A stretch of DNA of 32,000 nt from Comamonadaceae bacterium (GTDB taxonomy: Bacteria > Pseudomonadota > Gammaproteobacteria > Burkholderiales > Burkholderiaceae_C). Below are positions 1 through 24,931 of this stretch, piece after piece (position 1 is the first letter of the stretch; each line of letters begins with the position of its first letter). The translations under genes were made by a program, and so were the position numbers. The stretch lies in NCBI GenBank assembly GCA_947453645.1, contig CANGHG010000005.1, positions 6,496 through 38,495 on the forward strand, in the 5' to 3' direction. A model generated the notes under the pieces. The model had not been told where the DNA came from. It saw only the letters and a program-made list of their open reading frames with translations, and did not search any database.

Positions 1-230
1 ATGACGAAGCGCAAGTCGCGTTCGAGCGCTATTTGCACCTGCGCCGACAACAACCGCATTTCGCCAACGCCCGCAGTGTGCGCAACGCTTTAGAGCGCGC
101 CCGTTTGCGTCAAGCCAGCCGCCTTTTTGCCAACCCCGACAAAGTGTTGAGCGCGGATGACCTGAGCACCTTGAATGCCCAGGACATCTTGGCCAGCCGT
201 GTCTTTCAAACCAAACAGGTGAGTCCATGA
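1..230 (+). CDS. cbbX: CbbX (AAA+ red-type Rubisco activase), 3' end only; the gene begins upstream of the window
   Basis: Frame 3 is open from base 3 to the TGA at 228-230. The translation ...HFANARSVRNALERARLRQASRLF...DILASRVF matches the conserved CbbX C-terminus as I recall it. cbbY/F/P/A follow directly. Confidence 0.8.
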   Translation, partial: DEAQVAFERYLHLRRQQPHFANARSVRNALERARLRQASRLFANPDKVLSADDLSTLNAQDILASRVFQTKQVSP

Positions 231-949
231 GCAGCTTGAACGCCTTGATCTTTGATGTGGACGGTACCTTGGCCGACACCGAAAGCGCCCACATGGCGGC
301 TTTCAACCGGGCCTTTGCAGAAGAGGGTTTGGACTGGCATTGGGACTTGAAGCTTTACACCGAATTGCTGCAAATCTCGGGTGGCAAAGAACGCATGCTG
401 CACTACTGGAAGCAGCAACATCCGGACATGAAGGACATCGATGGCGGTGGTTTGCAAGACACCATCGAGCGGCTGCATGCCATCAAAACCGCGGCTTACG
501 AGAACGCGGTGCAACAAGGGCAGGTGCAATTACGCCCTGGTGTGTTGGCCATCATCCAGGCTGCCCATGCAGAAGGTTTGCGCTTGGCGATTGCCACCAC
601 CACCTCGCCAGTCAATATCGCGGTCTTGTTGCGCAGTGCCATTGGTCCCGACTGGAAAGACCTGTTCGCTGTCATCGAAGACGCGTCCACCGCGCCCAAG
701 AAAAAACCACATCCCCAGGTGTATCTGCAAACCCTCAGCCGCTTGGGCCTCCAGGCAGCAGACTGCTTGGCCTTTGAAGACTCTGCCAATGGCTTGAAAG
801 CCGCCACTGGCGCGGGCTTGGCGACCATCATCACGCCCAACAGCTTCACCCAGCACCACGACTTTGCAGGCGCTGCCCAGGTGCTGCCCGACTTGTCCTC
901 TGTGGACATTGCCCAATTGCGTGCTTGGCACGCCGCCTCTACAAAGTAA
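227..949 (+). CDS. cbbY: CbbY-type HAD-superfamily phosphatase (CbbY proteins are known as xylulose-1,5-bisphosphate phosphatases)
   Basis: The ATG at 227 overlaps the cbbX stop (ATGA). The N-terminal [11 protein letters not shown] is HAD motif I (DxDxT). 240 aa. Its position directly after cbbX matches cbb operons. Confidence 0.8.
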
Positions 950-2080: not shown

Positions 2081-2953
2081 ATGTCCGTCAAACACCCCAT
2101 CATCGCCATCACCGGTTCATCGGGCGCTGGCACCACCTCGGTGACCCGCACCTTTGAGAATATTTTTCGCCGAGAAAAAGTCACCGCCGCCATCATCGAA
2201 GGTGACAGCTTTCACCGCTACGACCGTTTGGAAATGCGCAAGAAAGCGGCCGAAGCTGAAAAGCAGGGTGACAAAAACTTCAGCCACTTTGGCCCGACCA
2301 CCAATTTGTTTTCTGAATTAGAAACCTTGTTCAAAAGCTATGGCGAAACCGGCACGGGCAAACGCCGCAAGTACTTGCATGACCACGAAGAGGCTGCGCC
2401 CTACAAACAAGAACCCGGCACTTTCACGCCTTGGGAAGACGTTCCCAAAGGCACCGATTTGTTGTTTTACGAAGGCTTGCATGGTGCGGTGGTGACCCCC
2501 GAGGTCAACATTGCCCAACACCCCGACTTGCTGATTGGCGTGGTGCCGGTTATCAATTTGGAGTGGATTCAAAAACTTTGGCGTGACAAGTCCAAGCGCG
2601 GTTATTCCACCGAGGCAGTGACCGACACCATCCTGCGCCGCATGCCCGACTATGTGAACTACATCTGCCCACAGTTCGCCCACACCCATGTGAACTTCCA
2701 ACGCGTGCCTTGTGTGGACACTTCCAATCCGTTCATTGCGCGTGAAATACCCGCACCCGACGAGAGCTTTGTGGTGATTCGCTTTGCCAACCCCAAGGGC
2801 ATCGACTTTCCTTACCTGCTCAACATGATTCACGACTCTTTCATGTCCCGTGCCAACACCGTGGTGGTGCCCGGCGGCAAGATGGAACTGGCCATGCAAC
2901 TCATCTTCACGCCCTTTGTCTGGCGCATGATGGAACGCCAGAAAAAGGCCTGA
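2081..2953 (+). CDS. cbbP: Phosphoribulokinase
   Basis: 290 aa. N-terminal P-loop IIAITGSSGAGTTSV. Length and sequence are typical of bacterial PRK, and it sits in a cbb context. Confidence 0.9.
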   Translation: MSVKHPIIAITGSSGAGTTSVTRTFENIFRREKVTAAIIEGDSFHRYDRLEMRKKAAEAEKQGDKNFSHFGPTTNLFSELETLFKSYGETGTGKRRKYLHDHEEAAPYKQEPGTFTPWEDVPKGTDLLFYEGLHGAVVTPEVNIAQHPDLLIGVVPVINLEWIQKLWRDKSKRGYSTEAVTDTILRRMPDYVNYICPQFAHTHVNFQRVPCVDTSNPFIAREIPAPDESFVVIRFANPKGIDFPYLLNMIHDSFMSRANTVVVPGGKMELAMQLIFTPFVWRMMERQKKA

Positions 2954-2986: not shown

Positions 2987-4024
2987 ATGGCCCTCGTTTC
3001 TTTGCGCCAAGTGCTGGACCACGCTGCCGAACACGGCTATGGCGTGCCCGCTTTCAATGTCAACAACCTCGAACAAGTGCAGGCCATCATGGAAGCCGCG
3101 CAAGAGACCCACAGCCCGGTCATCTTGCAAGCCTCGGCAGGTGCACGCAAGTACGCAGGTGAAGCCTATCTACGCCATTTGGTGTTGGCGGCCATCGAGT
3201 CGCACCCGGACATCCCCGTGGTGATGCACCAAGATCATGGCGTGTCTCCTGCGGTGTGTCAGCAGTCCATTCGCTCTGGTTTTTCCAGCGTGATGATGGA
3301 CGGCTCGCTCATGCAAGACGGCAAAACACCTTCGTCCTACGACTACAACATCGACGTCACACGCCGCGTGTGTGACATGGCGCATGCGGTGGGCGTGTCT
3401 GTGGAAGGCGAGTTGGGTTGTTTGGGCTCGCTGGAAACCGGTGAAGCTGGTGAAGAAGATGGCGTAGGTGCGGTGGGCAAGCTTACCCATGACATGCTGC
3501 TCACCGACCCCGTGCAAGCCAAGGACTTTGTGGAGCGCACCGGTGTGGACGCCTTGGCCATCGCCATTGGCACCAGCCATGGCGCTTACAAATTCACCCG
3601 CAAGCCCACGGGCGACATTTTGGCCATGGATCAAATCGTGGCGATTCACCAATCCATTCCCAATACCCATTTGGTCATGCATGGCTCCTCCAGCGTGCCC
3701 CAAGAGTGGTTGGCCATCATCCGTGAGTTTGGTGGCGACATCAAAGAAACCTATGGTGTTCCCGTGGAAGAAATTCAACGCGGCATTCGCTCGGGTGTGC
3801 GCAAGGTGAACATCGACACCGACATCCGCTTGGCCATGACCGGTGCGATGCGCCAAGCTTTTGCTCAAGACCGCAGCGAATTCGATCCACGCAAAGCCTT
3901 GATTGCAGCGCGTAAAGCTGCCAAGGGCATTTGCAAAGCGCGCTTTGAAGCCTTTGGTTGCGCCGGACACGCCCAGCAGATCAAACCAATTGCTTTGGAC
4001 ACCATGGCGGCGCGTTACAGCTGA
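2987..4024 (+). CDS. cbbA: Class II fructose-bisphosphate aldolase, Calvin-cycle copy
   Basis: 345 aa. Motifs [32 protein letters not shown] and [18 protein letters not shown] upstream. Paralogous to the fba at 11219-12283. Confidence 0.9.
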
Positions 4025-4363: not shown

Positions 4364-5248
4364 TCAATCCTCGGGCTTCTTCTGCAAGGCCAATTCATAC
4401 AAGCGGTTGCGTGGCGCACCGCTGATTTGTGCGGCCAAGCGGACTGCGCTTTTGGTGGGCAACTCGGTGAGCAGCAAGTCCAACACCCGTTCGGCTTCCA
4501 GCAGGTCTTGCTTCTCTTGCACCAGGGGATGAAGCACCAAGGCAAACTCGCCCTTGCTTCTCGGTGGCGAGGCATTGAGCCAACTCACCAACGCATTCGC
4601 AGGCATGAGCCCAACTTCCTCGAATTGCTTGGTGAGTTCGCGCCCCACCGTGAGCTGCCGCTCACCCAATACAGCTAAATCTTTGGCCACCGCTTCGATG
4701 CGGTGCGGCGCCTCTAAAAACACCTGGGCACGTGGTTCGGCCGCCATGGCCTGCACGGCGGTTTGACGTTCGCTGGACTTGCTGGGCAAAAACCCCAGAA
4801 ACACAAACTGTCCGTCCCCTGCACAGCCGCTGGCGCTCAGCACCGTGGTCACGCTGCTCGCCCCAGGAATCGGCATGACCCGCAAGCCCGCGGCTTGCAC
4901 CAAGGCCACCAATCGCGCCCCGGGGTCGCTGATCGCGGGCGTGCCTGCGTCACTCAAATAGACCACCCGCTGCCCTTGTTGCAACCGCAAAATCACATGC
5001 TCGGCGGCACTTGCCTCGTTGTGCTGATGCACTGCCAACCAAGCCGAAGCTGGTTTGTCCAGGCCGTAGTTGCGCAACAGGCTTTGGCTGTGTCGGGTGT
5101 CTTCGCAGGCCAGCACATCGGCCGTTTGCAGCAGGTGCAGAGCGCGCAAACCCATGTCGGCCAAATTGCCTATGGGTGTGGCCAAGACATACAAGCATCC
5201 GCCTGCGTGGTCTTGCCCGGCACTGGCGGCGTGAGCGGCGGCCAGCAC
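4364..5248 (-). CDS. rsmI: 16S rRNA (cytidine1402-2'-O)-methyltransferase RsmI
   Basis: Motifs LYVLATPIGNLADMGLRALHLL..ADVLACEDTRHSQSLL. Divergent from yraN, as in E. coli. Start uncertain: GTG 5248 is chosen because the track start at 5389 would overlap yraN by 120 nt; TTG 5269 is an alternative. Confidence 0.85.
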   Translation of the reverse strand: MLAAAHAASAGQDHAGGCLYVLATPIGNLADMGLRALHLLQTADVLACEDTRHSQSLLRNYGLDKPASAWLAVHQHNEASAAEHVILRLQQGQRVVYLSDAGTPAISDPGARLVALVQAAGLRVMPIPGASSVTTVLSASGCAGDGQFVFLGFLPSKSSERQTAVQAMAAEPRAQVFLEAPHRIEAVAKDLAVLGERQLTVGRELTKQFEEVGLMPANALVSWLNASPPRSKGEFALVLHPLVQEKQDLLEAERVLDLLLTELPTKSAVRLAAQISGAPRNRLYELALQKKPED

Positions 5249-5268
5249 GGTTTCAAAACGAGGATTCA

Positions 5269-5646
5269 ATGAACGCCTTTCAAAAGACTGAGGCCAGCAC
5301 CAAGCAAAGAGGCGATGCCGCTGAAGACCAAGCACTGGCCTTTTTGCAAGCGCGTGGGCTGCAACTGCTGGTGCGCAATTACCGCACACCAGGGCGCGGC
5401 GGCGGCGAGATAGACCTGATTGTGCGCGACCCCGAAGGCACGCTGGTCTTTGTCGAGGTCAGAAGCCGCGCCAATGCCCGTCACGGCGGGGCCTTGGCCA
5501 GCATCGGCGTGCAAAAGCAAAGGCGCATTCTGTTGGCTGCTCGCTTTTATTTGCACCGACTGCGAACATGGCCACCGTGCCGATTTGATGTGGTGGTGGT
5601 TGAGGCAGGTCAATTGCAGTGGATTCAAGCGGCGTTTTCGGCCTGA
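5269..5646 (+). CDS. yraN: YraN family (UPF0102) endonuclease-like protein
   Basis: Track ORF trimmed to the ATG at 5269. 125 aa. GEIDLIVRD....LVFVEVRSR core is typical of UPF0102. yraN-diaA-dolP synteny. Confidence 0.85.
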   Translation: MNAFQKTEASTKQRGDAAEDQALAFLQARGLQLLVRNYRTPGRGGGEIDLIVRDPEGTLVFVEVRSRANARHGGALASIGVQKQRRILLAARFYLHRLRTWPPCRFDVVVVEAGQLQWIQAAFSA

Positions 5647-13897: not shown

Positions 13898-14554
13898 ATG
13901 AACACCGCCACCATCGACTTTGACAGCCTGTTCCACAACAGCGCCCATCCAGGTTTGCAGGACTTGGCCAAACAAGGCCAGGTGCGGCATTACCGCAAAA
14001 ACACCTTGCTGATTGACGCGGGGGACACCGGGCAGGTCATTTACCTGGTGCTGTCGGGGCGTTTGCGCGAATTCGCCATGTCCAGCGACAGCCGCCCGCG
14101 CGAATTCACGCTGGCGGTGTTGGGACCGGGGCAGTTGGTGGGCGCCATGGCCTTGGACGGCGGTCCACATTGCGCCAGCGTGCTGACCTTGGGCCCTGTT
14201 AGCTGTGCGGTCATCAGCCGCGAAGCAGCACTGACCGTGCTCAGGCACAACCCGGCTTTGGCCATGGACTTGCTGCAACTGGCCTGGCAGCGGGTGCGTT
14301 TGGCCACTGAAACCACCCGTTTGGCGCTGTTTTCAGACGCGTACAGCCGCCTGAGCGCTTTTTTGCAGCGGCAAAACCCCTCAGGGCTGCAGGCCCGGGA
14401 CCACCCCATGACCCATGCCCAGATGGCGCAACAAATCGGCTGCAGCCGGGAAATGGTCAGTCGCATCCTGAAAGAACTGGTGACTGGGGGCTATGTGGTG
14501 CGGGAAACAGACAAGGTTTACCGGGTGTGCAAGCGATTGCCCCTACGGTGGTGA
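13898..14554 (+). CDS. Crp/Fnr-family transcriptional regulator
   Basis: 218 aa. N-terminal cyclic-nucleotide-binding-like fold (YLVLSGRLR...GPGQLVG). C-terminal HTH (THAQMAQQIGCSREMVSRILKEL). No N-terminal Cys cluster, so not an FNR-type Fe-S sensor. Confidence 0.8.
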   Translation: MNTATIDFDSLFHNSAHPGLQDLAKQGQVRHYRKNTLLIDAGDTGQVIYLVLSGRLREFAMSSDSRPREFTLAVLGPGQLVGAMALDGGPHCASVLTLGPVSCAVISREAALTVLRHNPALAMDLLQLAWQRVRLATETTRLALFSDAYSRLSAFLQRQNPSGLQARDHPMTHAQMAQQIGCSREMVSRILKELVTGGYVVRETDKVYRVCKRLPLRW

Positions 14555-14669
14555 GTGGTCAGCCTGAAAGAGGCTCGGGTGGCTACAATTGGGGATGGAC
14601 TGAGAAAAATGGCAAAGTCGTTTATCTCTAAGGACTTTCACTCATTTGGTGCCCTTTGTCACCCGCTTT

Positions 14670-15761
14670 ATGAACCAGCTCGAACAACCTATTGCCCCCA
14701 ATGAACCCATGCCCCACCGCAAGGTGATCCGCGAGTGGTTGATTCCCTTGTCCCACCGCATCACCGCTGGCGCCGTTTTGCTGCTGTTGGTGGATTACGC
14801 GGTTTGGGCCGCTTTGTTGACCGGCACCGTTTTATTCGAGGCTTGGTGGGCCAAGTTGCTGTGCGCGGGTGCCATGGGTTTCACCATCGGGCGCTTGTTC
14901 ATCATCGGCCATGACGCTTGTCACCAAAGCCTGACCCCGCACCGGGGGCTGAACAAATGGCTGGGCCGCATCGCCTTTTTACCCTCACTCACCACTTACA
15001 GTTTGTGGGACATCGGACACAACGTGGTGCACCACGGCTACACCAACCTCAAGGGCTTTGACTTTGTTTGGGCGCCACTCACCCAAGAAGAATTTGCCAA
15101 ATTGAATGTGATGGGTCGCTTGCTTGACCGCATCTACCGCAGCGGTTGGGCGCCAGGCCTTTACTACATGATTGAAATTTGGTGGAAAAAAATGGTGTTC
15201 CCCAGCGCCAAAGAAATGCCCACCCGCCGCCCCATCTTCATCAAAGACAGCTGGTTGATCACCGCTTTTGCGGCCCTGTGGTTGGGCGGCATCGTGTGGG
15301 CGGCAGACGCCACCAACCAGTCGGTGCTGTGGTTGATGTTGTTCAGCTTTGTGGTGCCCTTCTTGTTCTGGTGCGCCATGATTGGCTTTGTGGTTTATGT
15401 CCACCACACCCATGTGAAAGTCTCTTGGCACGACGACCGCAGTGCTTGGGCCAAAGCCCAGCCCTTTGTGTCCACCACGGTGCACCTGACTTTCCCATTG
15501 AAAATTGGCGCCCTGATGCACCACATCATGGAGCACACGGCCCATCATGTGGACATGAGCATCCCGCTGTACCGCTTGAAACAAGCGCAAACCAAATTGG
15601 AAACCTTGCTGCCTGGTCGCATCATCGTGCAACCCTTCTCATGGAGCTGGTACTTCCAAACCGCACGGGACTGCAAGTTGTATGACTTCACCCGCCAGTG
15701 TTGGACCGACTACAAAGGTCGCGCCACCAGCACACCGCCTGCTGGTTTGACCGCCGCCTGA
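14670..15761 (+). CDS. Membrane fatty-acid desaturase family protein (di-iron, three His boxes)
   Basis: His boxes HDACH, HNVVHH and HTAHH with hydrophobic segments between them. The track start at 14646 is TTG; the ATG at 14670 is preferred. Confidence 0.8.
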   Translation: MNQLEQPIAPNEPMPHRKVIREWLIPLSHRITAGAVLLLLVDYAVWAALLTGTVLFEAWWAKLLCAGAMGFTIGRLFIIGHDACHQSLTPHRGLNKWLGRIAFLPSLTTYSLWDIGHNVVHHGYTNLKGFDFVWAPLTQEEFAKLNVMGRLLDRIYRSGWAPGLYYMIEIWWKKMVFPSAKEMPTRRPIFIKDSWLITAFAALWLGGIVWAADATNQSVLWLMLFSFVVPFLFWCAMIGFVVYVHHTHVKVSWHDDRSAWAKAQPFVSTTVHLTFPLKIGALMHHIMEHTAHHVDMSIPLYRLKQAQTKLETLLPGRIIVQPFSWSWYFQTARDCKLYDFTRQCWTDYKGRATSTPPAGLTAA

Positions 15762-15822: not shown

Positions 15823-17013
15823 TCAGGCGGCGCGCTTCATCAAAATCTCAAACGCGGGCAGGGTTTTGCCCTCCAGCACTTCCAGAAAAGCGCCGCCGCC
15901 GGTGGAGATGTAGCCGATCTTGGACTCGATGCCGTACTTGGCAATGGCGGCCAAGGTGTCGCCGCCACCGGCGATGCTGAAGGCGGCAGAGTCGGCAATC
16001 GCGTGGGCCACCACCTTGGTGCCGTTCTCGAACGCCGCGAACTCGAACACGCCCATGGGGCCGTTCCACACGATGGTGCCAGCGGATTTGAGCTGCGCGG
16101 CCAATCGGGCGGCGGTGTCGGGACCGATGTCCAAAATCAAATCATCATCGGCCACCTCATGGGCTTGTTTCACCGTGGCCGGTGCATCTGCGCCAAAGCT
16201 TTTGGCGCAGACCACGTCGGTGGGAATCGGCACCTCGGCTCCGCGCGTTTTCATGGCGGCGATCACCGCTTTGGCTTCGCCCACCAAATCAGGCTCGGCC
16301 AAGGACTTGCCAATCTTCAAACCCGCCGCCAGCATGAAGGTGTTGGCAATGCCGCCGCCCACGATGAGTTGGTCCACGTTCTTGGCCAGCGCTTGCAAGA
16401 TGGTGAGTTTGGTGCTGACCTTGCTGCCGGCCACGATGGCGGCCAGTGGGCGCTTGGGGTTGGCCAAGGCCTTGGTGATGGCGTCGATCTCGGCCGAGAG
16501 CAGGGGCCCAGCACAAGCGATGGGCGCGAATTGCGCGATGCCATAGGTGGTGCCCTCAGCGCGGTGGGCGGTGCCAAAGGCGTCGTTGACATAGATGTCA
16601 CACAACGCGGCCATTTGGCGGGCCAGCTCTTCGCTGTTCTTTTTCTCGCCCTTGTTGACCCGGCAGTTCTCCAACATCACCACTTGGCCGGGGGCGACTT
16701 GCACGCCGCCCACCCAGTTGGCGATCACTGGCACCTCGCGGCCCAGCAGTTCACCCAAACGCTTGGCCACCGGGGCAAGCGAGTCTTCGGGCTTGAATTC
16801 GCCTTCGGTCGGGCGGCCCAAATGCGAGGTGACCATGACCGCTGCACCGGCAGCCAGCGCCATCTGGATGCAAGGCACCGACGCGCGGATGCGGGTGTCT
16901 TCGCTGATGTGGCCGTGGTCGTCAAACGGCACATTGAGGTCGGCGCGGATGAAGACACGTTGGCCTTGGGCTTTTCCTTGGGCGCACAGGTCTGAGAAGC
17001 GGAGGATGTTCAT
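15823..17013 (-). CDS. pgk: Phosphoglycerate kinase
   Basis: 396 aa. RADLNVP, SHLGRP and STGGGAFLE motifs. Confidence 0.93.
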
Positions 17014-17080
17014 GGTGTTTGTCTCGGTGGTTTATTTTTCTCGCATTCTAGGGATGATGGGCGCGCGCATCTACAGGGCG

Positions 17081-17929
17081 TCAATCCAACCACTGGAACA
17101 TCTGCTGAGCCACAGCCGGGAACTTCACATGCGGCTCTGAGGTGACGCAATAGCGCAAGGTTTTGCCCGCCGCGCATGACCTGAGTTGGCAGCCGTTGGC
17201 CTCGGTCTGCACCACTTCGCTGCACTGCATGCACTGGCCCCACCAGGTCGCTGCGCCCTCGCCAAAACCAGGAAACAAATCGTCTTTGGGGTTGTGCAAC
17301 ACGCTCACATGCAGGGGCGCAGGGCAGGCCTCTTCGGCCAAATCTTGGCTGGTGATGCCGGCTGCACTCACCACGATGCGGGCAGGCCGCACCGCCGCAG
17401 GTAATTGACGCACGGTCAAGCCGGTGCTCAAACTGCCGCCATCTGAATGCCCTGCAAACACCACCCGATCGGGGTTGATGCACCACTGGCTCATGACCTG
17501 GGGCACCACCTCGCTTTGCAGGCGCAAGGCGCGTCCCGACAGCGGGATGGCGGCGCTGTAAACCACCACATAGCCGGCTTCATTGGCTTGGCGGGTGAGC
17601 TGGTAATAGCGTTCGGCCAAATCATTTGAAAACCCGGCAGGCGGGTACATCATGAGCAGGCCATGTTGCTTGTTGGCTTGGTAGTTGCTGGGTGCCACCA
17701 CGCTGAACTTCAGCCCACTGGGGGTTGTCAAATCGGTGTGCCGCCCTGCTTGCCCACTGAGCGGCGAGGCACAACCTGGCGGCATGTCCTTCAAGCTGGC
17801 CGCCGCCTCGGGCAGTGGCGGCTTGAACCAAGACTGGGCCAGCAGATACAACAGGCCCAGCAACGCCAACACGGCCAACACCCGTTGACCGCGTTGCACC
17901 CCTGTGAGTGGCGGTTTGGGCTCAGTCAT
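17081..17929 (-). CDS. Secreted or membrane-anchored alpha/beta hydrolase, PHB-depolymerase-family (LpqC-like) esterase
   Basis: 282 aa. N-terminal hydrophobic anchor VLAVLALLGLLYLLA. Nucleophile elbow GHSDGG. Cys-rich C-terminus. Its ATG (17929) overlaps the copD-fusion stop by 8 nt (ATGACTGA). Confidence 0.6.
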   Translation of the reverse strand: MTEPKPPLTGVQRGQRVLAVLALLGLLYLLAQSWFKPPLPEAAASLKDMPPGCASPLSGQAGRHTDLTTPSGLKFSVVAPSNYQANKQHGLLMMYPPAGFSNDLAERYYQLTRQANEAGYVVVYSAAIPLSGRALRLQSEVVPQVMSQWCINPDRVVFAGHSDGGSLSTGLTVRQLPAAVRPARIVVSAAGITSQDLAEEACPAPLHVSVLHNPKDDLFPGFGEGAATWWGQCMQCSEVVQTEANGCQLRSCAAGKTLRYCVTSEPHVKFPAVAQQMFQWLD

Positions 17930-19796
17930 GTTGATGGATCGCGGCTGATTTGATTTCCCCTTCGAGGGCCAAGCTGTCGTAAACCGCTTTGAGTTGATCC
18001 AAGCTCAAGGCGCTGTGGCCCTCGTCCGAGCGCCAACGTGCACGCACAAAGCCATAGCGGTCAATTGAAAATTCCAAGCGTGCCACATCCACCTCCTGGT
18101 TTTGAAAATCGGGCGCGGCAAAGGTGCGTCTGTACTGCGCCCAAGCCTTGGCAATCACACCCTGGGGATCGGCCAGCAAAATGGCTTCACAAGGCCCTTT
18201 CACCAAACCCTCAAGCCATTTGGCGTCTGGCACCACCACCACCAATTGCGCGGGAAAGCCCTTCATGTTTTGCAGCAGATCGCGCACCCTTTGCAATTCC
18301 GAGGTTCGGTTGACGATGATCAGGTGCACCGCATGCAAACCACGCCATTCGGACAAGGACATGTAGTTGTTCTGGCCCACTTGAAAGCGAAAGTCGATGC
18401 TGGGCAACCAGGGGTTGAAAGGCGCGGGTTTGTCGCTGAGGCTGCGCGATTCGTGACCCAAGGACAGCGCAATCAGGTAATTGATCAAGTGCCAGCGCTC
18501 ATCCACCGACAGCACCGAGGCAAAGCCCGGCATGGCTCCTCGGCCATGGCTTAGCCACCAAAACATATCGCCATGGGTGTGCCAGCTCACATGGGGCTCG
18601 GTGAGGTTGGCCGCCGGGAGTTTGTTCAGCTGTGCCACGGGCCCATCGCCCAAACCGTGCAGGCCGTGGCAGTCGGTGCAGTACTGTTGGTACAAGTCTT
18701 GCCCCGCCATCACCGAGTCCGCGTCCAATCGGGCCGATGAATGCATGTAGGTGCTGGGGTAAGCCGGTATGGTGGTGGCAGGCAGGGCCAGCGCCAAAGA
18801 GGCCAATCCCCCCAAGGCCAACAAACCCCGCGCCATGCGCTTGAATCGGGTGCGCAACACCGCCCACAGCAGCAGCCCTAGCAAGCCCAAGGCCGCCGCC
18901 CACAGCAAAGCCTGGGTGGTGTTGGCCGGGTCTTGTTTCCAGGCCAGCACAGGGGCCCAGCGGATGGCAAAAGGCCACACGATCGTGTCGTGGGCAGCAG
19001 GCACGGTGGCGGCCAACATGCTGGCGCTGAACAACACGCCCAAGGCCAGGCCTGCCTCGCTGCTGAGCCAGGCTTGGGCCATGGCATGCGCGGCTGCGGA
19101 CTTTGACAACCAGCGGCGCAACTGCCAAGCACACCACAAGGCGGCGGCTACCAAACAGAGTTTGATCAACAACAACCAGCCATAGGGCGTGGCCAACAAG
19201 CCGGGCCAAGTGGCCACGCTCCAACGGCTGAGCATGACGCCACTGACCAGCAGCAAGCCCATGCCGGGCAAAGCCCATTTGGAAAACCAATGCAAGCGCT
19301 CACGCCAAGCGGCATGCACCACATCAGCCTGGCGTGCGGCCAAGAGCAGACCCAAGATGCCCGCCAACCACAACTGCGCGAGCAACACATGCAACACCGA
19401 AAGCGCTGACAGCCCCAAGCTTTCAGCCGAGGACACCACATGGCCGCTGAAGGCCATGCCGGCCATCACCAAGAACAGCAAGCCCCACAAAGCCCAGTGG
19501 CGGGGTCGCCATTGAAACAAGGCCAAGGCCAAGATCAGCAAAACGGTTTGTGCCAACAACACCCGACCCACATGGGTTTGCAAGGCATTCAGCCAAGGCT
19601 GCTCGCTGGCCATGAGGGCTTGCAAAGACCAGGACAAGTCGAGCACGCGGCCCAATTGCACCACCAGCGCAGCCACGAGCAAACGGCTGCACCAGCGTTG
19701 CAGCTGAGCAAGGGAGAGTCGTTGGTTCCACAACAGGCCCCACAGCAGCGCCATCAATGCGATTTGCAAGCCTCGCAGGACGGCAGCGGTGTCCAC
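17922..19796 (-). CDS. copD: CopD-family membrane protein fused to a class I c-type cytochrome domain and a C-terminal Cys-less thioredoxin-like domain
   Basis: The N-terminal ~345 aa are polytopic and follow copC. Next come CTDCH (CxxCH) with a downstream GAMPGF Met. The last ~190 aa have a Trx/AhpC-TSA-like pattern (IDFRF..MSLSEWRG..HLIIV, LLADPQGVIAKAW, EFSIDRYGFVRARW) with no CxxC. Start uncertain: GTG at 19796, 5 nt after the copC stop, is chosen; the track start is 19868; the ATG at 19754 is an alternative. Confidence 0.7.
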   Translation of the reverse strand: MDTAAVLRGLQIALMALLWGLLWNQRLSLAQLQRWCSRLLVAALVVQLGRVLDLSWSLQALMASEQPWLNALQTHVGRVLLAQTVLLILALALFQWRPRHWALWGLLFLVMAGMAFSGHVVSSAESLGLSALSVLHVLLAQLWLAGILGLLLAARQADVVHAAWRERLHWFSKWALPGMGLLLVSGVMLSRWSVATWPGLLATPYGWLLLIKLCLVAAALWCAWQLRRWLSKSAAAHAMAQAWLSSEAGLALGVLFSASMLAATVPAAHDTIVWPFAIRWAPVLAWKQDPANTTQALLWAAALGLLGLLLWAVLRTRFKRMARGLLALGGLASLALALPATTIPAYPSTYMHSSARLDADSVMAGQDLYQQYCTDCHGLHGLGDGPVAQLNKLPAANLTEPHVSWHTHGDMFWWLSHGRGAMPGFASVLSVDERWHLINYLIALSLGHESRSLSDKPAPFNPWLPSIDFRFQVGQNNYMSLSEWRGLHAVHLIIVNRTSELQRVRDLLQNMKGFPAQLVVVVPDAKWLEGLVKGPCEAILLADPQGVIAKAWAQYRRTFAAPDFQNQEVDVARLEFSIDRYGFVRARWRSDEGHSALSLDQLKAVYDSLALEGEIKSAAIHQHD

Positions 19797-19801
19797 GTTG
19801 T

Positions 19802-20158
19802 TCAGGGTTTGACTTTGAAGCCGAGTCGGCCTTTGCCAGGGTGGCCGTCTTTGGCCAAGATGGACCAATCCACTTGGTACTCATGGGCCTGGTGCGGGGG
19901 CAGGTTGATTTGCAAGACCTTGCCAGAGGCGTCCCACTGCAAGCTATTGGCGGGCAAGGGCAACACCTGCTGATCGGCCTGCACTTCGATGCGTGAGAAT
20001 TTTTTCTCAACCGGCTCAGAAAACCGCAACCGCAGTTGCTGAGGCGATTGGGCAATCACCGCATTCGCTGGCGGCTCGCTGTCAAGCAAATGGGCGTGCG
20101 CAGCGGCCAGCATGGGCAGGCACAGCCACAAACCGACAAAGACAGTTGCCAGACGCAT
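19802..20158 (-). CDS. copC: CopC-family periplasmic copper-binding protein (Cu(II)-site-only type)
   Basis: The signal peptide ends LAAA, followed by HAHLLDSEP (N-terminal His). A DGH motif lies near the C-terminus (AKDGHPGKGRLGFKV). No Met-rich Cu(I) motif. The ATG at 20158 is 2 nt after the pmoD-like stop; the track start at 20164 is TTG. Confidence 0.8.
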   Translation of the reverse strand: MRLATVFVGLWLCLPMLAAAHAHLLDSEPPANAVIAQSPQQLRLRFSEPVEKKFSRIEVQADQQVLPLPANSLQWDASGKVLQINLPPHQAHEYQVDWSILAKDGHPGKGRLGFKVKP

Positions 20159-20160
20159 GG

Positions 20161-20724
20161 TCAATGCACTTGCTGATCGGCTTGCTTGGCGATGTCTTTG
20201 TGCAAACGCTGACGACCCAGGGCCAAACCGCCCATGCCCAGGGCCAACAAAGCAATGGCCCCCAGGAAGTAATACAGCAACCCACCCCGTGGTTTGCCCA
20301 CCGCAAACGGGAACACCGAGGCGTGCTTTTGCCCTTCGCCGGCATAGACCAAGCCGACATAGTCGCCGTCGTCCATGAAGTCGTGACGCACCATCAGCGT
20401 GCCACGCGGGTAGGTGGCAGGCGGCAATTTGTACACCACGGGCGCCGCGTCCAAGGGACCGTCGGTTTTGCGAACAATCCGAAACTCCACGGGCATGTCG
20501 CGCAAAGTCAGGTCCACCATGTCGAGCACGATGATGGTGGGGCCTTTGTGCGGGATGTCTTCACAAAACTCGGTGCGTTGCGCGTCTTCTTGGTAGCCCG
20601 CGAAATGCATCATGTACGGGCCCACCGATAGCTTGCACATGTCTTGTTCCATGGACAAGCCACCGTGCGCCCAAGCGCCCAGGGCTGTCCATGAAAACGC
20701 CGCTGCAATCAGAAATCGTTTCAT
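20161..20724 (-). CDS. pmoD: PmoD/AmoD-like periplasmic cupredoxin-type protein with C-terminal membrane anchor
   Basis: Track ORF trimmed to the ATG at 20724 (7 nt after the xmoB stop). Signal peptide MKRFLIAAAFSWTALGAWA. Motif C-x7-M-x-H (CKLSVGPYMMH). C-terminal TM helix LLYYFLGAIALLALGMGGLAL. Sits between the B subunit and copCD, as amoD/pmoD does. Confidence 0.65.
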   Translation of the reverse strand: MKRFLIAAAFSWTALGAWAHGGLSMEQDMCKLSVGPYMMHFAGYQEDAQRTEFCEDIPHKGPTIIVLDMVDLTLRDMPVEFRIVRKTDGPLDAAPVVYKLPPATYPRGTLMVRHDFMDDGDYVGLVYAGEGQKHASVFPFAVGKPRGGLLYYFLGAIALLALGMGGLALGRQRLHKDIAKQADQQVH

Positions 20725-20731
20725 GCAGGGC

Positions 20732-21991
20732 TCACAGTGCGGTGAACGTGGGCAGGATGGGCCCGCCAATTTCACTCAAGCTGCGGTTGCCCGACTTGTC
20801 CACAAAGAACAGCAAGCCACCGAACTTGGAGTCCACGTCGGTCAAGAAGCTGACCAGTCGCTCGACTTCCCACAGCGCATCGCTGGCTTCCATCTTGATG
20901 TCACGGGTTTCACCAGGCATGAGTGGTTTTTGGTCGCTCAAGCCCAGGCCACCTCGGGCCACCAGGTCGCGTGGGTAATCGGCTGACACCGCTTTGTCGG
21001 CACCAGGCGCTTGTTGATTGACAAAGCGCAAGTTGGCCGTGGCGAACTCCAGGATGGTCACGGGTTCGCTGCCGTGGTTGGTCATGCGGGCCACCACGTG
21101 CATGGCGCGTCCGGGCACGTCGTAATTGGCCTTGAGCACCTTGACTTCCACATCGCCCTTGGCTTTGGGCAAGGGGTCGACCTTGTTGGTACCAGCTTGC
21201 AATGGCACGACATAGGGGTACTCGTGCTTGGCGTAGATGTAGCCGCCAAAGGAAAGGGCCACGACCACCACGCCCAAAATCACGCCCACCGTGATGTCGC
21301 GGTTGGTGATCAGCACGTCTTCACGGCCTTTGTTCAGCGCAATCCAGCGAGGTAACAACAAGGGGCGCACCAACCAGAACAACAACCAAAACGCGGCCAA
21401 GGCCAACCACACGCCATACCACTTGAGGGCGCGTGAAATACCGTAGTACTCCAGGTTTTCAATTTCAGCACCGTTCATGGTGGTGACTTTTTGTACAAAG
21501 TCGCCCTTGGTGCCTGTGACTTCAATCCACTGGCCAGGGCCCACCAAAGGTCCAGAGCCCTTGACCGACAACAGCGGGTGGATGTGGTGACGCCCAGGGA
21601 TGCGGCCTTTCATGACCAGCTTGAACTCATAGTCACGGCCCAACTCCAATTTGGAGAAGGATTGACGAGCGGGCATGCCGTTCAAATAGCTTTCCACACG
21701 AGTGATCATGGGGCCAGGTGCATAGGCCGACAAAAACACGGTGTCGGGCAGGCTGACCGCGTCGGGCCAGTCTTCCATCAAACGGAACTTGCCGATCAAG
21801 GTGAACTCTTCATTGACCTTGACGGTTTTTTTGTCGTAATGAACATCGTAGTACTGCACGGTGCGGGTGCGCAGGTAAGGCTCTTGCGAACGTTCACCAT
21901 GGGCCCAGGCGGACTCGGTGGCCACGCCTGCCAACACCAGCAAACCCAAACACAGCGCGAACAACTTGCTTATTTTTTGAATGAAATACAC
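20732..21991 (-). CDS. xmoB: Copper membrane monooxygenase subunit B (PmoB/AmoB family)
   Basis: Start re-assigned to the GTG at 21991 (AAGGGGA RBS; 26 nt after the xmoA stop). The track start at 22162 would overlap xmoA. The signal peptide ends ESAWA, followed by HGERSQEPYLRTRT (N-terminal His). HHIH lies ~105 residues later (HxH). Two central TM helices and a C-terminal beta-rich domain. 419 aa. Confidence 0.88.
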   Translation of the reverse strand: MYFIQKISKLFALCLGLLVLAGVATESAWAHGERSQEPYLRTRTVQYYDVHYDKKTVKVNEEFTLIGKFRLMEDWPDAVSLPDTVFLSAYAPGPMITRVESYLNGMPARQSFSKLELGRDYEFKLVMKGRIPGRHHIHPLLSVKGSGPLVGPGQWIEVTGTKGDFVQKVTTMNGAEIENLEYYGISRALKWYGVWLALAAFWLLFWLVRPLLLPRWIALNKGREDVLITNRDITVGVILGVVVVALSFGGYIYAKHEYPYVVPLQAGTNKVDPLPKAKGDVEVKVLKANYDVPGRAMHVVARMTNHGSEPVTILEFATANLRFVNQQAPGADKAVSADYPRDLVARGGLGLSDQKPLMPGETRDIKMEASDALWEVERLVSFLTDVDSKFGGLLFFVDKSGNRSLSEIGGPILPTFTAL

Positions 21992-22017
21992 GGTGAATCC
22001 CCTTGTGTGTTGGCGCT

Positions 22018-22857
22018 TCAAGCGTCTGCCTTGGTGCCCATCATGGCCATGACTTTTTTGTTGTTCGGCAGGAATTTCATGCTCGACATGGCAATGCCCA
22101 AATACCACCAGGCGTAGTGCATGAAGATGCAGATGAAGCCGCCGAACAAAGCCGACACCCAACTGGCCGAGTCACCAAAGGTGCGCAAGGTGCCGCGCTC
22201 AATGATGCGGATGTACTCGGGCGTGGCCGAGCGGGGATAGACATAGCCAATCAAGTCGGCCATGGAGGCCATCATGCCTTGGTGGCTGACGGGCACGTAA
22301 AACGGCGCAAAGATGGTGTAGTTGGAGGGGTAGAACAAAAACGCAAACGCAAAGCCGCCGAAGATGGCGGTGAACAAGGCGTTGCGAAACACCAGCAAGA
22401 ACACATCCAAGACGATGGCGCCAGCAATCATTTGCGCGGGCAACACCAGGTTCAAGGGGTAGTCGGTCCACCACATGAACGAGGCTGGGCGTGAGATGGA
22501 CACGGCCACCATCAAACAGGTGGCACCCACCGTGGCACCAATGGGCAAGCGAAAGTAAGTCCAGAAGATGCCTTGCAAGGCCGCCGGGAACATGATCATG
22601 ACCACTGGGCTCAAGAGCGGCCAGTACTGGCGGTCTTTCCAGTCCAAGAACATGTCCCAGTCGCCCGCCAACAGCAACACGTGCAAGTGGATGGCGCCGG
22701 CAAACAGCATGATGATGGCGGCGACCACGAACAATTCGAAGACGCGGGAGAAATGCAGGGCTTTGGGCGACAGACCTGAGACGCTTTCCACGGTATCGTG
22801 GGCGTGCGTTTGTCCTGCCGCAGCACCCCGAGGGTGTTGCAGTGTTTCTGTGTTCAT
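22018..22857 (-). CDS. xmoA: Copper membrane monooxygenase subunit A (PmoA/AmoA family)
   Basis: 279 aa. LLAGDWDMFLDWKDRQYWP, FYPSNY, and ATPEYIRIIERGTLRTFG match hallmark PmoA/AmoA blocks. AGGAA RBS. 26 nt after the xmoC stop. Confidence 0.9.
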   Translation of the reverse strand: MNTETLQHPRGAAAGQTHAHDTVESVSGLSPKALHFSRVFELFVVAAIIMLFAGAIHLHVLLLAGDWDMFLDWKDRQYWPLLSPVVMIMFPAALQGIFWTYFRLPIGATVGATCLMVAVSISRPASFMWWTDYPLNLVLPAQMIAGAIVLDVFLLVFRNALFTAIFGGFAFAFLFYPSNYTIFAPFYVPVSHQGMMASMADLIGYVYPRSATPEYIRIIERGTLRTFGDSASWVSALFGGFICIFMHYAWWYLGIAMSSMKFLPNNKKVMAMMGTKADA

Positions 22858-22883
22858 GATGAATTCCTAGGTGAGGAGACCGT

Positions 22884-23663
22884 TCAGGCCGTTTCGTTCT
22901 TGAAAACGATGGGCATGAGTTCGCGGAAACGCGAGATGATTTGCATCAACACGCCAGCGAGAGAGAGGGCGTTCCAGCCCAGTACCGCAAAGCCCCAGTG
23001 CAAGGGATGCGAGAAGATTTCTTCGGTCAACCAGTAAGCATGACCCCATTCGTTGTAGCCCAGGTTGGGCAAAATGAGGAAGGGGCCGACCACCGCGAAC
23101 ACGTGCATCAAGGAGATGCCTTTGCAGAATGCGGGGATGCGGGTCATGGCATACACAAAGCTGCCAATGCCAAACATGAGGTACATGGGGATGCATGCGT
23201 AAAACAACACCACATGGCTGGGTGTGATGGGCGTGTCGCGCAGCACGGTTTGGTGCCAGTTGCCGTCGCCTTCGCCAAAGAAGCTGCCAATCCAGTAGAA
23301 GGTGAAGGTGTAGACCACCAACCACATGGTCAGGTAGAAATAGCGCTTGAGTTCTTCTTCGGGGGTGATGGCGTCGATGTTGCGGTCACGCGTGAAGAAC
23401 AGGTAGACCTGAATCAGGGCCACGATGCCAAACAAAATGGGCAGCTGGGTCCAGAACAAGCGCATCCAAATGTCTTGGAAGATGGGTTCGGTGGAGTCCA
23501 GACCAGCGGACATGCCATACATCTGTTGGTAGACGCGGTAGGACACATAAACACCGGTCAGCACAATCATGGTGACCGCGAACCAGATGTAGCTCAGGGT
23601 GAAACGCGACGTGGTGTCGCGGCTTTCGGTGAGATGCAGATCTCGGCTGCTCAAGGTGGACAT
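22884..23663 (-). CDS. xmoC: Copper membrane monooxygenase subunit C (PmoC/AmoC family)
   Basis: The ATG at 23663 is preceded by AAGGAG-N7; the track start is 23720. 259 aa. GDGNWHQTVLRDTPITPSH (D-x3-H-x12-H) and NEWGHAYWLTEEIFSHPLHWGF (N-x3-H-x13-H) reproduce the two PmoC metal-site ligand patterns. Confidence 0.9.
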   Translation of the reverse strand: MSTLSSRDLHLTESRDTTSRFTLSYIWFAVTMIVLTGVYVSYRVYQQMYGMSAGLDSTEPIFQDIWMRLFWTQLPILFGIVALIQVYLFFTRDRNIDAITPEEELKRYFYLTMWLVVYTFTFYWIGSFFGEGDGNWHQTVLRDTPITPSHVVLFYACIPMYLMFGIGSFVYAMTRIPAFCKGISLMHVFAVVGPFLILPNLGYNEWGHAYWLTEEIFSHPLHWGFAVLGWNALSLAGVLMQIISRFRELMPIVFKNETA

Positions 23664-23858
23664 CGACGGACTCCTTTTGTTCGGTGTGAAAAACCGTTTA
23701 TCAACAATTAACCTTTGCATTTTTTGGACATAAGCCCCTTTGCGACAACGGTGTTTACACCTAGATCATGCAAGGTTTTTCATGTTTTTCAGCTGATCTC
23801 CTGGATATTTCAGGTAGCAATCGGCAATTTCATGCATTAAATTGCATGTTGATACCGA
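23664..23858 (-). promoter_or_regulatory. xmoC upstream leader/promoter region (AT-rich, with repeats); exact promoter not identified
   Basis: Hand count gives 41 of 100 G+C for 23721-23820, against ~54-68 in nearby coding samples. RBS AAGGAG at 23671-23676. Inverted repeat CATGCA-N6-TGCATG at 23831-23848. Direct repeat GTTTTTCA at 23775-23782 and 23784-23791. TGCATG or its near-variants recur. Confidence 0.4.
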
Positions 23859-24200
23859 CTACCAACCCAAGCCGATGTGCAAGGGCAAATAGACCGTCAT
23901 GCCCACCACGATGGTGCCCAGCACCGCCTGACCCTGGCCGCGTCGCCAAAAGTAAAAGGCCGCGCCCGTGGTTGCCGCGTAAATGCGGGCATCAGCAAGT
24001 GAGCTGATGAGTGCGCCTTGGCGCATGACGATTTCCGGGATGATGACCGCGCTCAAAGCCGCAATGGGTGCATAACGCAAGCCTCTGTCGGCCCAGGCAG
24101 GGAAGGGCAACTCCTGCTCGAACATGAAAAAGAAACAGCGGGTGACCACGGTCACGACGCCCAAGGCGGCCACAGTCAGGTAAATCCACCCATCGCTCAT
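23859..24200 (-). CDS. azlD: AzlD-family branched-chain amino acid transport protein
   Basis: 113 aa, hydrophobic. Overlaps the azlC stop by 4 nt. Classic azlCD pairing. Confidence 0.8.
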   Translation of the reverse strand: MSDGWIYLTVAALGVVTVVTRCFFFMFEQELPFPAWADRGLRYAPIAALSAVIIPEIVMRQGALISSLADARIYAATTGAAFYFWRRGQGQAVLGTIVVGMTVYLPLHIGLGW

Positions 24201-24931
24201 TGGCGCGCCTCCTCACCCGCCAAAGGCGTGCGTTCCAGCAGCAAACACATGGCCACGGCGGCCGCGATGGCCACCACGATGTTGAGTTTCAAGGGCAGGG
24301 CATAAGCCGCCACCGCCGCTGCACCCGAGACGCCCGCCGACACCCGGCGCAAGCGGCTGTCTGAAAGCGAGCACATGACGCCTACCAAGGCCAGCACGCC
24401 TGCAAATCCCAAGCCCCAACTGCCTGGAATTTGGCTGGCCATGAACACGCCCACCAGGCTCGATATTTGCCAGCCAATCCAATTCAAAAAGCAGTTGCCC
24501 GATAAATAGGCCATCTCGGCACGCTGGCCTGACGCGTCTTGTGCGGGCTGTGAAAAGCGCCTGACAAACATCACATAGCTCATGTCGGCGGTGATGTAAC
24601 CCAGGCACATGCGTTGCCACCGCGGCCAGCTCATGAGGTACTGGCGCAGGTGCATGCTGAACACCACAAAGCGCAAATTGACACAAAACGCGGTGGCCAG
24701 CACCACCCAAAATGGCGCGCCCACCGCCAGCATGGGCGTGACCGCCAATTGCGAACTGCCTGCATAGACCAGCAGCGTCATGGCGGTCGACACCTCCACG
24801 CTCAAGCCCGACTGCACCATGGCCACACCGGTCATCAAACCCCAGGCCCAGATGCCAGGTGCGACCGACAAAATATCACGCATGCCCTCTTTGAAGGCCG
24901 GGTGCTTGTAGTTGGCAGGATCGAAAAACAT
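24197..24931 (-). CDS. azlC: AzlC-family branched-chain amino acid permease subunit
   Basis: Track ORF trimmed to the ATG at 24931 (MFFDPANYKHPAFKEGMRD...), 7 nt after the fmt stop. Polytopic. AGSSQL motif. Confidence 0.8.
   Translation of the reverse strand: MFFDPANYKHPAFKEGMRDILSVAPGIWAWGLMTGVAMVQSGLSVEVSTAMTLLVYAGSSQLAVTPMLAVGAPFWVVLATAFCVNLRFVVFSMHLRQYLMSWPRWQRMCLGYITADMSYVMFVRRFSQPAQDASGQRAEMAYLSGNCFLNWIGWQISSLVGVFMASQIPGSWGLGFAGVLALVGVMCSLSDSRLRRVSAGVSGAAAVAAYALPLKLNIVVAIAAAVAMCLLLERTPLAGEEARQ

Follow-up and report, generated by a model that had tools for sequence, protein, structure and literature searches.

A CopD permease fused to cytochrome c and peroxiredoxin-fold domains behind a bacterial copper monooxygenase operon: anatomy and a possible role in copper acquisition

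Introduction

In the CopC/CopD route of bacterial copper handling, the copper bound by CopC is Cu(II), while that used by exporters and chaperones is Cu(I). A role in tolerance or sequestration was originally proposed for plasmid CopCD systems (PMC7558416). About 50,000 proteobacterial CopD sequences have since been analysed (PMC11923076; Commun Biol 2025), with the oxidation state of the copper during CopD import left unresolved, and no reductase is known for CopD-type importers or YcnJ (PMC13344008). Here we describe a gene that encodes a CopD permease fused to a cytochrome c domain and a peroxiredoxin-fold domain. It lies behind the genes of a copper membrane monooxygenase (CuMMO) in a 32,000-nucleotide stretch of DNA from a Comamonadaceae bacterium (assembly GCA_947453645.1, contig CANGHG010000005.1, positions 6,496 to 38,495 of the forward strand). 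This whole stretch is called the window below, and positions are counted from its first letter.

Proteins of this general kind were recognized in the large CopD analysis, where about 4% of CopDs were found to carry a cytochrome cbb3 domain together with a Sco1/thioredoxin-like domain, including the CopD of Methylosinus trichosporium OB3b (PMC11923076). They share with our protein the order of CopD, cytochrome c (PF13442) and thioredoxin-superfamily domain, as well as the position after copC in an extended pmo/amo-type operon. That paper gives the subfamily one sentence without analysis, and the OB3b CopD is likened to the present one by description only. The architecture is already on record, and the subfamily is widespread. 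A first-pass annotation of the window had professed no knowledge of any functional characterisation of such a fusion. In the literature we likewise found no dedicated or biochemical study of it, but the type had been described in PMC11923076 and an OB3b copCD mutant had been reported. In contrast to the Sco1 label used in that paper, the last domain of our fusion is closer to Bcp/AhpE, and its redox cysteines are absent family-wide.

As described below, the fusion is an intact single gene and a member of the CopD-cytochrome c-thioredoxin-like copper permease subfamily. New here are the dead peroxiredoxin (Prx) fold that is not Sco, an additional histidine (H269), the HxH tail, the detection of the Prx-fold domain only within the fusion and the frequent linkage to CuMMO and PmoD genes. 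We propose, with a probability of roughly 0.35 to 0.45, that the protein serves copper acquisition, its haem c reducing the Cu(II) that CopC delivers.

Results

Reading frame and overall architecture

The fusion gene (Table 1) is a single unbroken frame of 624 codons. The longest open reading frame (ORF) at this position, 17922..19868 (-), begins with TTG; the start at 19796 is a GTG located 5 nt past the copC stop, and the MDT/MDA start of the homologues coincides with it. Independent assemblies supply 88 homologues, 570-700 aa long, in which the architecture is equally continuous. Because the frame is unbroken both here and in these homologues, a frameshift artefact is excluded; the first-pass annotation had considered that two or three separate genes might have been joined by a sequencing error, and the answer is one gene, with the same layout in all 88. 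Every motif quoted in that annotation was found in the translated fusion. Its three-domain reading also held when domain profile searches and a structure prediction of the C-terminal part were run, and we regard the three-domain architecture as close to certain. A promoter and terminator scan of positions 16900-24300 gave no signal beyond shuffled expectation.

The CopD core and two additional membrane helices

The N-terminal part of the protein matches Pfam CopD (PF05425; E=9e-16, 58.6 bits against a cutoff of 32.1). It does not pass the NCBIfam copper_CopD equivalog model NF033808 (44.1 bits against a cutoff of 195), and for this reason the fusion is considered a divergent CopD rather than an equivalog. 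In the full-length AlphaFold2 (AF2) model (predicted local distance difference test score, pLDDT, 92.9; predicted template-modelling score, pTM, 0.88), the CopD core consists of eight membrane helices. Two extra helices at residues 290-314 and 319-340 bring the total to ten, all of them within residues 3-340, and hydropathy agrees. The first-pass annotation had counted 345 residues of hydrophobic helices plus one further helix, a description that gives way to ten helices within residues 1-340.

The loop between helices 9 and 10 (RTRFKR) is predicted to be cytoplasmic. Lysines plus arginines number 16 in the predicted cytoplasmic loops and 2 in the periplasmic loops, with the N-terminus outside. 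Based on the ten helices, this orientation and the 16:2 charge ratio, the haem and Prx-fold domains are predicted to be periplasmic, the two extra helices serving to return the chain to the periplasm in the model. The periplasmic placement of both soluble domains that had been raised at first pass agrees with this prediction. Attachment of a c-type haem needs a periplasmic location.

When the fusion is aligned with Escherichia coli K-12 YebZ by BLASTP, H119 aligns with H135 and H136 with H154. Mutating YebZ H135/H154 reduces or abolishes copper uptake (PMC11923076). Both histidines are invariant in the 89 aligned sequences from which all conservation counts below are taken, and both are predicted to lie at the periplasmic face; their complete retention argues that transport has been retained as well. 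W143 is invariant too (89/89), as are H269 and W274 of the PAAHDxIxWP loop that follows helix 8 (89/89). The region around H269 is absent from YebZ. H269, which is placed at the periplasmic face, is specific to the fusion, and this third invariant histidine is a new observation. A Foldseek search with the full-length model returned no solved CopD structure; its matches were to the two soluble domains and, poorly, to CcmF.

The cytochrome c domain

The middle domain matches Pfam Cytochrome_CBB3 (PF13442) at 1e-12 and Cytochrom_C (PF00034) at 3e-6. Its CxxCH motif, C373-x-x-C376-H377 (nt 18666-18680), is conserved in 88/89 sequences. The same fraction keeps M422, the candidate axial ligand, which aligns with the methionine in the MPGF segment of c552. 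A PDB search found cytochrome c552 (9vr0/7o9u) at 5e-13, and Foldseek aligned the domain with 9vr0 at a TM score of 0.74 on the target, a root-mean-square deviation of 1.5 Å and 35% identity. The cytochrome c domain with CxxCH and a candidate axial methionine, as first annotated, is supported by all three kinds of match (Pfam, PDB and Foldseek).

Two further histidines of this domain, H402 and H406, are conserved in 87/89 sequences and were considered as a copper site. This candidate was rejected: free-standing Thioalkalivibrio cytochrome c552 has both residues too, and they are therefore not counted as evidence for a copper site.

A peroxiredoxin fold without redox cysteines

The C-terminal 180 aa searched alone against Pfam gave only a chance match to RHIM, and a family profile was therefore needed. 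A profile of the domain built from 36 sequences matched Bcp/AhpE peroxiredoxins in the PDB at 6e-8 to 8e-7, ResA at 8e-6 and TlpA at 1.5e-4, and the domains of 13/36 relatives individually matched Pfam AhpC-TSA (PF00578). No Sco chain occurred among the 53 PDB profile matches at E<=10, and PF02630 was matched by 0/36 members. The AF2 model of the Prx-like domain (pLDDT 88.9, pTM 0.88) retrieved peroxiredoxins in Foldseek with E ~1e-7, probability 1.00 and TM ~0.55. Bcp/AhpE peroxiredoxins are the nearest relatives of this last domain, rather than thioredoxin proper or Sco. The fold proposed at first pass (thioredoxin/AhpC-TSA/TlpA) was thus confirmed by profile, AF2 and Foldseek, while the nearest relatives turned out to be peroxiredoxins and not thioredoxin proper.

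In spite of this fold, the domain is not a peroxiredoxin, because none of the 89 relatives has a cysteine at the peroxidatic position (the PxxxT/SxxC loop) and Bcp has about 3 residues more in its active-site loop. A cysteine at the CxxC position is likewise found in 0/89; VNRTSELQ occupies this position on helix 1, and the CxxxC of Sco type is also absent from the fusion's domain. The first-pass annotation had called the domain Cys-less, which is correct for redox cysteines at the CxxC or peroxidatic site and incorrect in the literal sense. One cysteine is present, C536 (KGPCEA; codon 18189-18191 (-)), just before strand 5 and, by our own reading of the fold, away from the canonical active site. 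It is kept in all 28 close relatives. In 20 further relatives there is a Cys within 2 alignment columns of C536 together with a second Cys near strand 1, and this pair of the distant clade could possibly form a disulfide.

Outside the tail, conserved residues of the domain include D579 and G582 (89/89 each) and R585 (87/89). R573 was considered as a counterpart of the catalytic arginine of peroxiredoxins; it has the right spacing before D579, but it is conserved in close relatives only and the assignment was dropped.

In the tail, H621 is conserved in 87/89 sequences and H623 in 69/89, and the tails of some relatives read HxH, HHH or are rich in Met. These tails resemble copper-binding tails and may have a similar use. 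Residues 618-624 have pLDDT values below 50 in the full-length AF2 model.

Distribution of the fusion

The fusion had been annotated as unusual, a description that does not survive wider searches. When a single genome of each GTDB species was scanned with a pattern, relatives turned up in at least 253 species. HMMER, run in full over 1.84 billion representatives with the Prx-domain profile, matched 154 clusters (at 50% identity) when E<=1e-30 was required and 430 with E<=1e-10. Among the best 80 of the 253 species, for which taxonomy was taken, are Burkholderiales (Comamonadaceae, Rhodoferax, Polaromonas, Methylibium, Hydrogenophaga), Bradyrhizobium and other Hyphomicrobiales, and also Methylomirabilota/Rokubacteria and Binatia. 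Nitrosomonas, Nitrosospira and Methylosinus were absent from the named matches and from the best 80 loci returned. A plasmid collection yielded four weak matches on Burkholderia and Ralstonia replicons, none of them annotated.

The full-length profile matches are 600-700 aa long and carry the Prx-like domain at the extreme C-terminus. Shorter matches of 130-390 aa raised the possibility of a stand-alone domain, which was rejected on inspection. Most of those inspected (13 + 8) begin at an internal Met of the MPGF/MPAF/MPEF segment, and the remainder begin elsewhere in the cytochrome c/Prx-like domain or in the C-terminal region of CopD. Because their starts lie inside the same protein, the short matches look like truncated gene calls. 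Among the matches inspected, the dead Prx-fold domain is found only in the CopD fusion.

Linkage to CuMMO genes was surveyed in 48 informative loci (at least 6 kb of upstream sequence), a sample that is biased towards relatives of the query. A complete xmoCAB set lies directly upstream of the fusion gene in 26/48 loci, on the same strand in 23; a PmoD-like gene is present in 27/48 and a recognisable copC in 24/48. The association of the architecture with CuMMO genes, which the first-pass annotation had left to a survey, is a frequent one. CuMMO-linked fusion genes occur in Burkholderiales, Bradyrhizobium, Polaromonas, Rhodoferax and Methylibium. CuMMO-less loci have copC upstream, CusF plus rhodanese or SCO1-SenC genes downstream, and DUF2946.

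Two distant relatives without CuMMO (L084 and L085) have, directly upstream of copC, a gene for a protein of about 312-321 aa without a Pfam family (4671-5636 and 4684-5622, respectively). It is preceded by a gene for a 121-131 aa protein, with a weak DUF2946 match in L084 only. The 312-321 aa protein may be another conserved partner of the pair formed by copC and the fused copD.

The gene cluster and its surroundings

The cluster xmoCAB-pmoD-copC-copD-orf282, in which the fusion comes sixth, is tightly packed on the minus strand (Table 1). The layout, with the CAB genes, a PmoD/AmoD-type gene, copC and copD closely spaced on one strand, is that of the extended amo/pmo operon (amoCAB-amoE/D-copC-copD) described by Fisher et al. 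(PMC6189053). The identical gene order is found in 23 other loci.

Table 1. Features of the fusion gene, its cluster and other genes of the window
Feature	Position	Strand	Evidence
CopD–cytochrome c–Prx-like fusion gene	17922..19796	-	
CopD core, residues 1-263	19008..19796	-	Pfam CopD, YebZ alignment, AF2 helices
Fusion-specific extension, residues 264-340 (PAAHDxIxWP loop, helices 9 and 10)	18777..19007	-	Conservation, AF2
Class I mono-haem cytochrome c domain, residues 341-452	18441..18776	-	Pfam, PDB, Foldseek
Prx-fold domain without redox Cys, residues 453-617	17946..18440	-	Profile, AF2, Foldseek
Disordered tail AAIHQHD, residues 618-624, then stop codon	17922..17945	-	Conservation, AF2 pLDDT
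xmoC/amoC, first cluster gene	22884..23720	-	Pfam AmoC 6e-88; AmoC_BACT 343.9 bits vs 319
xmoA/amoA	22018..22857	-	Pfam AMO 2e-80; AmoA_BACT 283.4 bits, just below cutoff 290
xmoB/amoB	20732..22162	-	Pfam Monooxygenase_B 1e-137; AmoB_BACT 520.8 bits vs 336
PmoD/AmoE homologue, 204-aa ORF	20161..20775	-	phmmer PDB 6cpd_A PmoD E=3.6e-18
copC, periplasmic Cu(II)-binding type (putative)	19802..20164	-	Pfam CopC 3e-19; PDB CopC 6nfq 2e-11
orf282, 282-aa hydrolase-like gene	17081..17929	-	Weak Abhydrolase_3 and PHA-depolymerase matches
HAD phosphatase (Calvin-cycle-type)	227-949		
Phosphoribulokinase (Calvin-cycle-type)	2081-2953		
Class II fructose-bisphosphate aldolase (Calvin-cycle-type)	2987-4024		
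Crp/Fnr-type regulator	13898-14554	+	
Membrane fatty-acid-desaturase-family protein	14646-15761	+	
Phosphoglycerate kinase, pgk (Calvin-cycle-type)	15823-17013	-	

The true start of xmoB is probably near 21970, because its ORF overlaps amoA and the family match begins at residue 65. The PmoD homologue has no Pfam or NCBIfam match; its C, M and H residues align with those of 6cpd_A, and it has the literal Cx7MxH...C motif. It comprises a periplasmic domain and a C-terminal membrane helix, with a probable start at ATG 20724. Among the PmoD-like neighbours of the other fusion genes, all but a handful keep C-x8-M-H, the exceptions including Polaromonas loci (CILRIGSDRAH).

CopC has a mature N-terminal His (after AHA|H) and a DGH motif, which align with the N-terminal His and the D-x-H of 6nfq; the protein has the Cu(II)-type His1/Asp/His site. 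At the other end of the fusion gene, the ATG of orf282 overlaps the copD stop by 8 nt (ATGACTGA). In the orf282 protein, an N-terminal segment of membrane or signal type is combined with a serine-hydrolase elbow (GHSDG) and a C-terminus rich in Cys. Its homologues adjoin a fused copD or a CuMMO cluster in about 20/80 loci, and orf282 looks like a conserved member of the operon.

The monooxygenase itself (Xmo) falls in a clade of uncultured Burkholderiales. Unnamed metagenome proteins share 87-96% identity with XmoA, and loci of metagenome-assembled genomes (MAGs) of lake Betaproteobacteria/Burkholderiales/Comamonadaceae share 97-98%. The nearest named relatives of XmoA, at 75-77% identity, are Burkholderiaceae and Methylibium MAG proteins called AmoA by the annotation pipeline PGAP. 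No Nitrosomonas or Nitrosospira name is among the best 120 XmoA matches, and the substrate may be ammonia or a short alkane. The Calvin-cycle-type genes of the window, lying beside a CuMMO cluster, give a hint of an autotrophic lifestyle. The regulator and desaturase genes are located about 1.3 kb past the end of the cluster, beyond pgk and on the opposite strand.

Discussion

A possible reductive route for copper

In the mechanism that we favour, CopC, as a Cu(II)-only type, would hand Cu(II) to the periplasmic histidines H119, H136 and H269. A periplasmic donor would reduce the haem c domain, and the haem would pass one electron to the copper to give Cu(I), which would then be moved through CopD or passed to the assembly of copper enzymes. 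The dead Prx-fold domain would serve as a non-redox scaffold or docking surface, and the HxH tail might act as a transient copper-binding arm. Behind a CuMMO operon, the protein would in this way supply copper for the monooxygenase and for PmoD.

In favour of such a mechanism, H119, H136, H269, CxxCH, M422 and H621 are conserved family-wide, and copper genes recur beside the relatives, with copC upstream and CusF or SCO1-SenC downstream. A reductive mechanism also fits the CopD/YcnJ route as presently understood, because that route has no known reductase and the imported oxidation state is unresolved. The coupling of copper import to a Cu(II)/Cu(I) step, one of two ideas put forward at first pass, is plausible in this context, given the adjacent CopC with its Cu(II)-type site.

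Several points weigh against this proposal. The only genetic data on a reported member of the family come from strain OB3b, where, according to a review, copCD proved not critical for copper uptake or for the copper switch (PMC7558416). Within the Prx-like domain, conservation outside the tail histidine falls mostly on a structural beta-hairpin set (D579, G582, R585) and points to no obvious ligand site. Finally, the attachment of haem, the transfer of electrons, the binding of copper by the tail and the direction in which copper moves are postulated steps of the proposal.

A more ambitious version of the proposal, which we hold only tentatively and consider on the unlikely side, is that the protein is a self-contained system for reductive uptake. 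The haem would be wired to the respiratory chain, Cu(II) would be reduced at H119/H136/H269, Cu(I) would be imported, and the Prx-fold domain with its HxH tail would form a relay arm. If true, a cupric reductase would for the first time be linked to a CopD importer, and bacteria would have, in one polypeptide, a counterpart of the eukaryotic combination of Fre/Steap and Ctr1.

Alternative explanations

The likeliest of the alternatives, although itself improbable at perhaps the odds of a weak bet, is that the fusion is a maturation factor for periplasmic copper enzymes. CopD would be a membrane platform, and the cytochrome c and Prx-fold domains a helper of the Sco/TlpA/PCuAC type, which would maintain the redox state of the copper or of the target site while CuMMO, PmoD or haem-copper oxidases are loaded. 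Such a function has precedent in Bacillus subtilis YcnJ, which supports the Qox and Cta oxidases and whose extra C-terminal domain aids CuA assembly (PMC13344008), and fusions of CtaG with CopD exist. A SCO1-SenC gene overlaps the 3' end of the relative at L084, many relatives lie within a CuMMO-PmoD operon, and TlpA is among the fold and profile matches. However, both uptake histidines are fully conserved, from which we argued above that transport is retained, and the fusion lacks both the Sco ligands (CxxxC + His) and the TlpA CxxC. The lack of any Pfam SCO1-SenC match in the family, and of any Sco chain in the PDB search, points the same way. The copper tolerance originally ascribed to CopCD systems is considerably less probable; in this case periplasmic Cu(I) would give up an electron to the haem and become the less toxic Cu(II), or else copper would be sequestered by the protein. 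The earliest descriptions of CopCD were from resistance operons, the relative at L082 has a CusF gene immediately downstream, and the potentials of class I cytochromes c permit electron flow in both directions. Yet no copA/copB multicopper oxidase or other resistance genes are found around the cluster in the window, the genomic context is that of a copper-dependent enzyme, and overexpression of CopD/YebZ raises cellular copper, which indicates import (PMC11923076).

The proposal that the haem reduces a CuA-type site of the PmoD homologue, which would in turn feed electrons to the CuMMO, likewise has a small probability, smaller if anything than that of tolerance. The gene two upstream of the fusion encodes a PmoD homologue with Cx7MxH...C, and CuA sites classically take electrons from cytochrome c. 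The motif gives PmoD a CuA-like site (PMC6189053), and a PmoD-like gene and fused copD occur together in 27/48 informative loci. On the other hand, the fusion is common in Rokubacteria/Methylomirabilota, Binatia and others without CuMMO or PmoD within 10 kb, the literal Cx7MxH is kept in only 11/32 of the PmoD-like neighbours, and the proposal has no role for the permease core or the Prx-like domain. The second idea of the first-pass annotation, that the fusion supplies electrons near the monooxygenase, is weakened by the share of informative loci, about half, that lack a CuMMO nearby. Least probable of all are enzymatic activity of the last domain, as a thiol peroxidase or a thiol-disulfide oxidoreductase, and an origin of the fusion as an artefact of assembly or of a frameshift. 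The former might be suggested by the similarity in fold and profile to peroxiredoxins, ResA and TlpA, and the latter by the short 'stand-alone' database matches. Both are contradicted by what was observed, namely the absence of a peroxidatic or CxxC cysteine in 89 relatives and the shortened active-site loop in the one case, and the single frame in 88 homologues and the truncated appearance of the inspected short matches in the other.

Significance

A CopD subfamily that is widespread and carries its own haem is the obvious place to seek a periplasmic cupric reductase. The linkage to CuMMO genes ties the fusion to the copper supply for methane, ammonia or alkane oxidation. The reported knock-out phenotype is weak, and the value of the present analysis is a sharpened, testable hypothesis together with a cleaner domain assignment. 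The sharpened anatomy also provides a direct experimental handle on periplasmic copper reduction.

Comparison with known systems

E. coli YebZ and Pseudomonas CopD, the canonical 8-helix CopD importers, share with the fusion the 8-helix core, both uptake histidines and a copC/yobA gene directly upstream. The identity to YebZ is 28% and extends over 170 residues only, and the fusion adds 360 residues (the H269 loop, two helices, the haem domain and the Prx fold). B. subtilis YcnJ (CopC-CopD-YtkA) and the actinobacterial CopD-CtaG proteins likewise join CopD to extracytoplasmic copper modules that serve copper enzymes. Their fused modules are CopC, YtkA or CtaG, and they contain no domain with a redox cofactor, unlike the fusion.

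The terminal domain shares the thioredoxin-superfamily fold of Bcp/AhpE, TlpA/ResA and Sco1/SenC, including the order of strands and helices and the FLIDxxGxxR hairpin, but lacks the peroxidatic Cys, the CxxC and the CxxxC+His of these proteins. The haem domain has the class I fold, the CxxCH and the E-H-x3-H-x-GD and GRGxMPGF Met segments of Thioalkalivibrio paradoxus c552 (7o9u, 9vr0), of the monohaem subunits of Alternative Complex III and of CcoP. Those cytochromes are electron carriers that are soluble or bound in complexes, whereas the domain described here is tethered between a permease and a Prx fold.

A Sco-cytochrome c fusion of Pseudomonas putida, studied by Banci, Bertini and colleagues, reportedly carries out intramolecular electron transfer to bound copper. 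It is said to combine, as the present protein does, a thioredoxin-fold copper domain with a class I cytochrome c; it differs in having the Sco CxxxC+His and no permease. Finally, the Fe-S protein CcoG and the eukaryotic Fre/Steap/Dcytb reductases that act with Ctr1 are proposed functional analogies only, in that Cu(II) is reduced at the membrane, ahead of import or in its course (PMC7558416). They have no sequence or fold relation to the fusion, which would perform this reduction with a periplasmic c-type haem.

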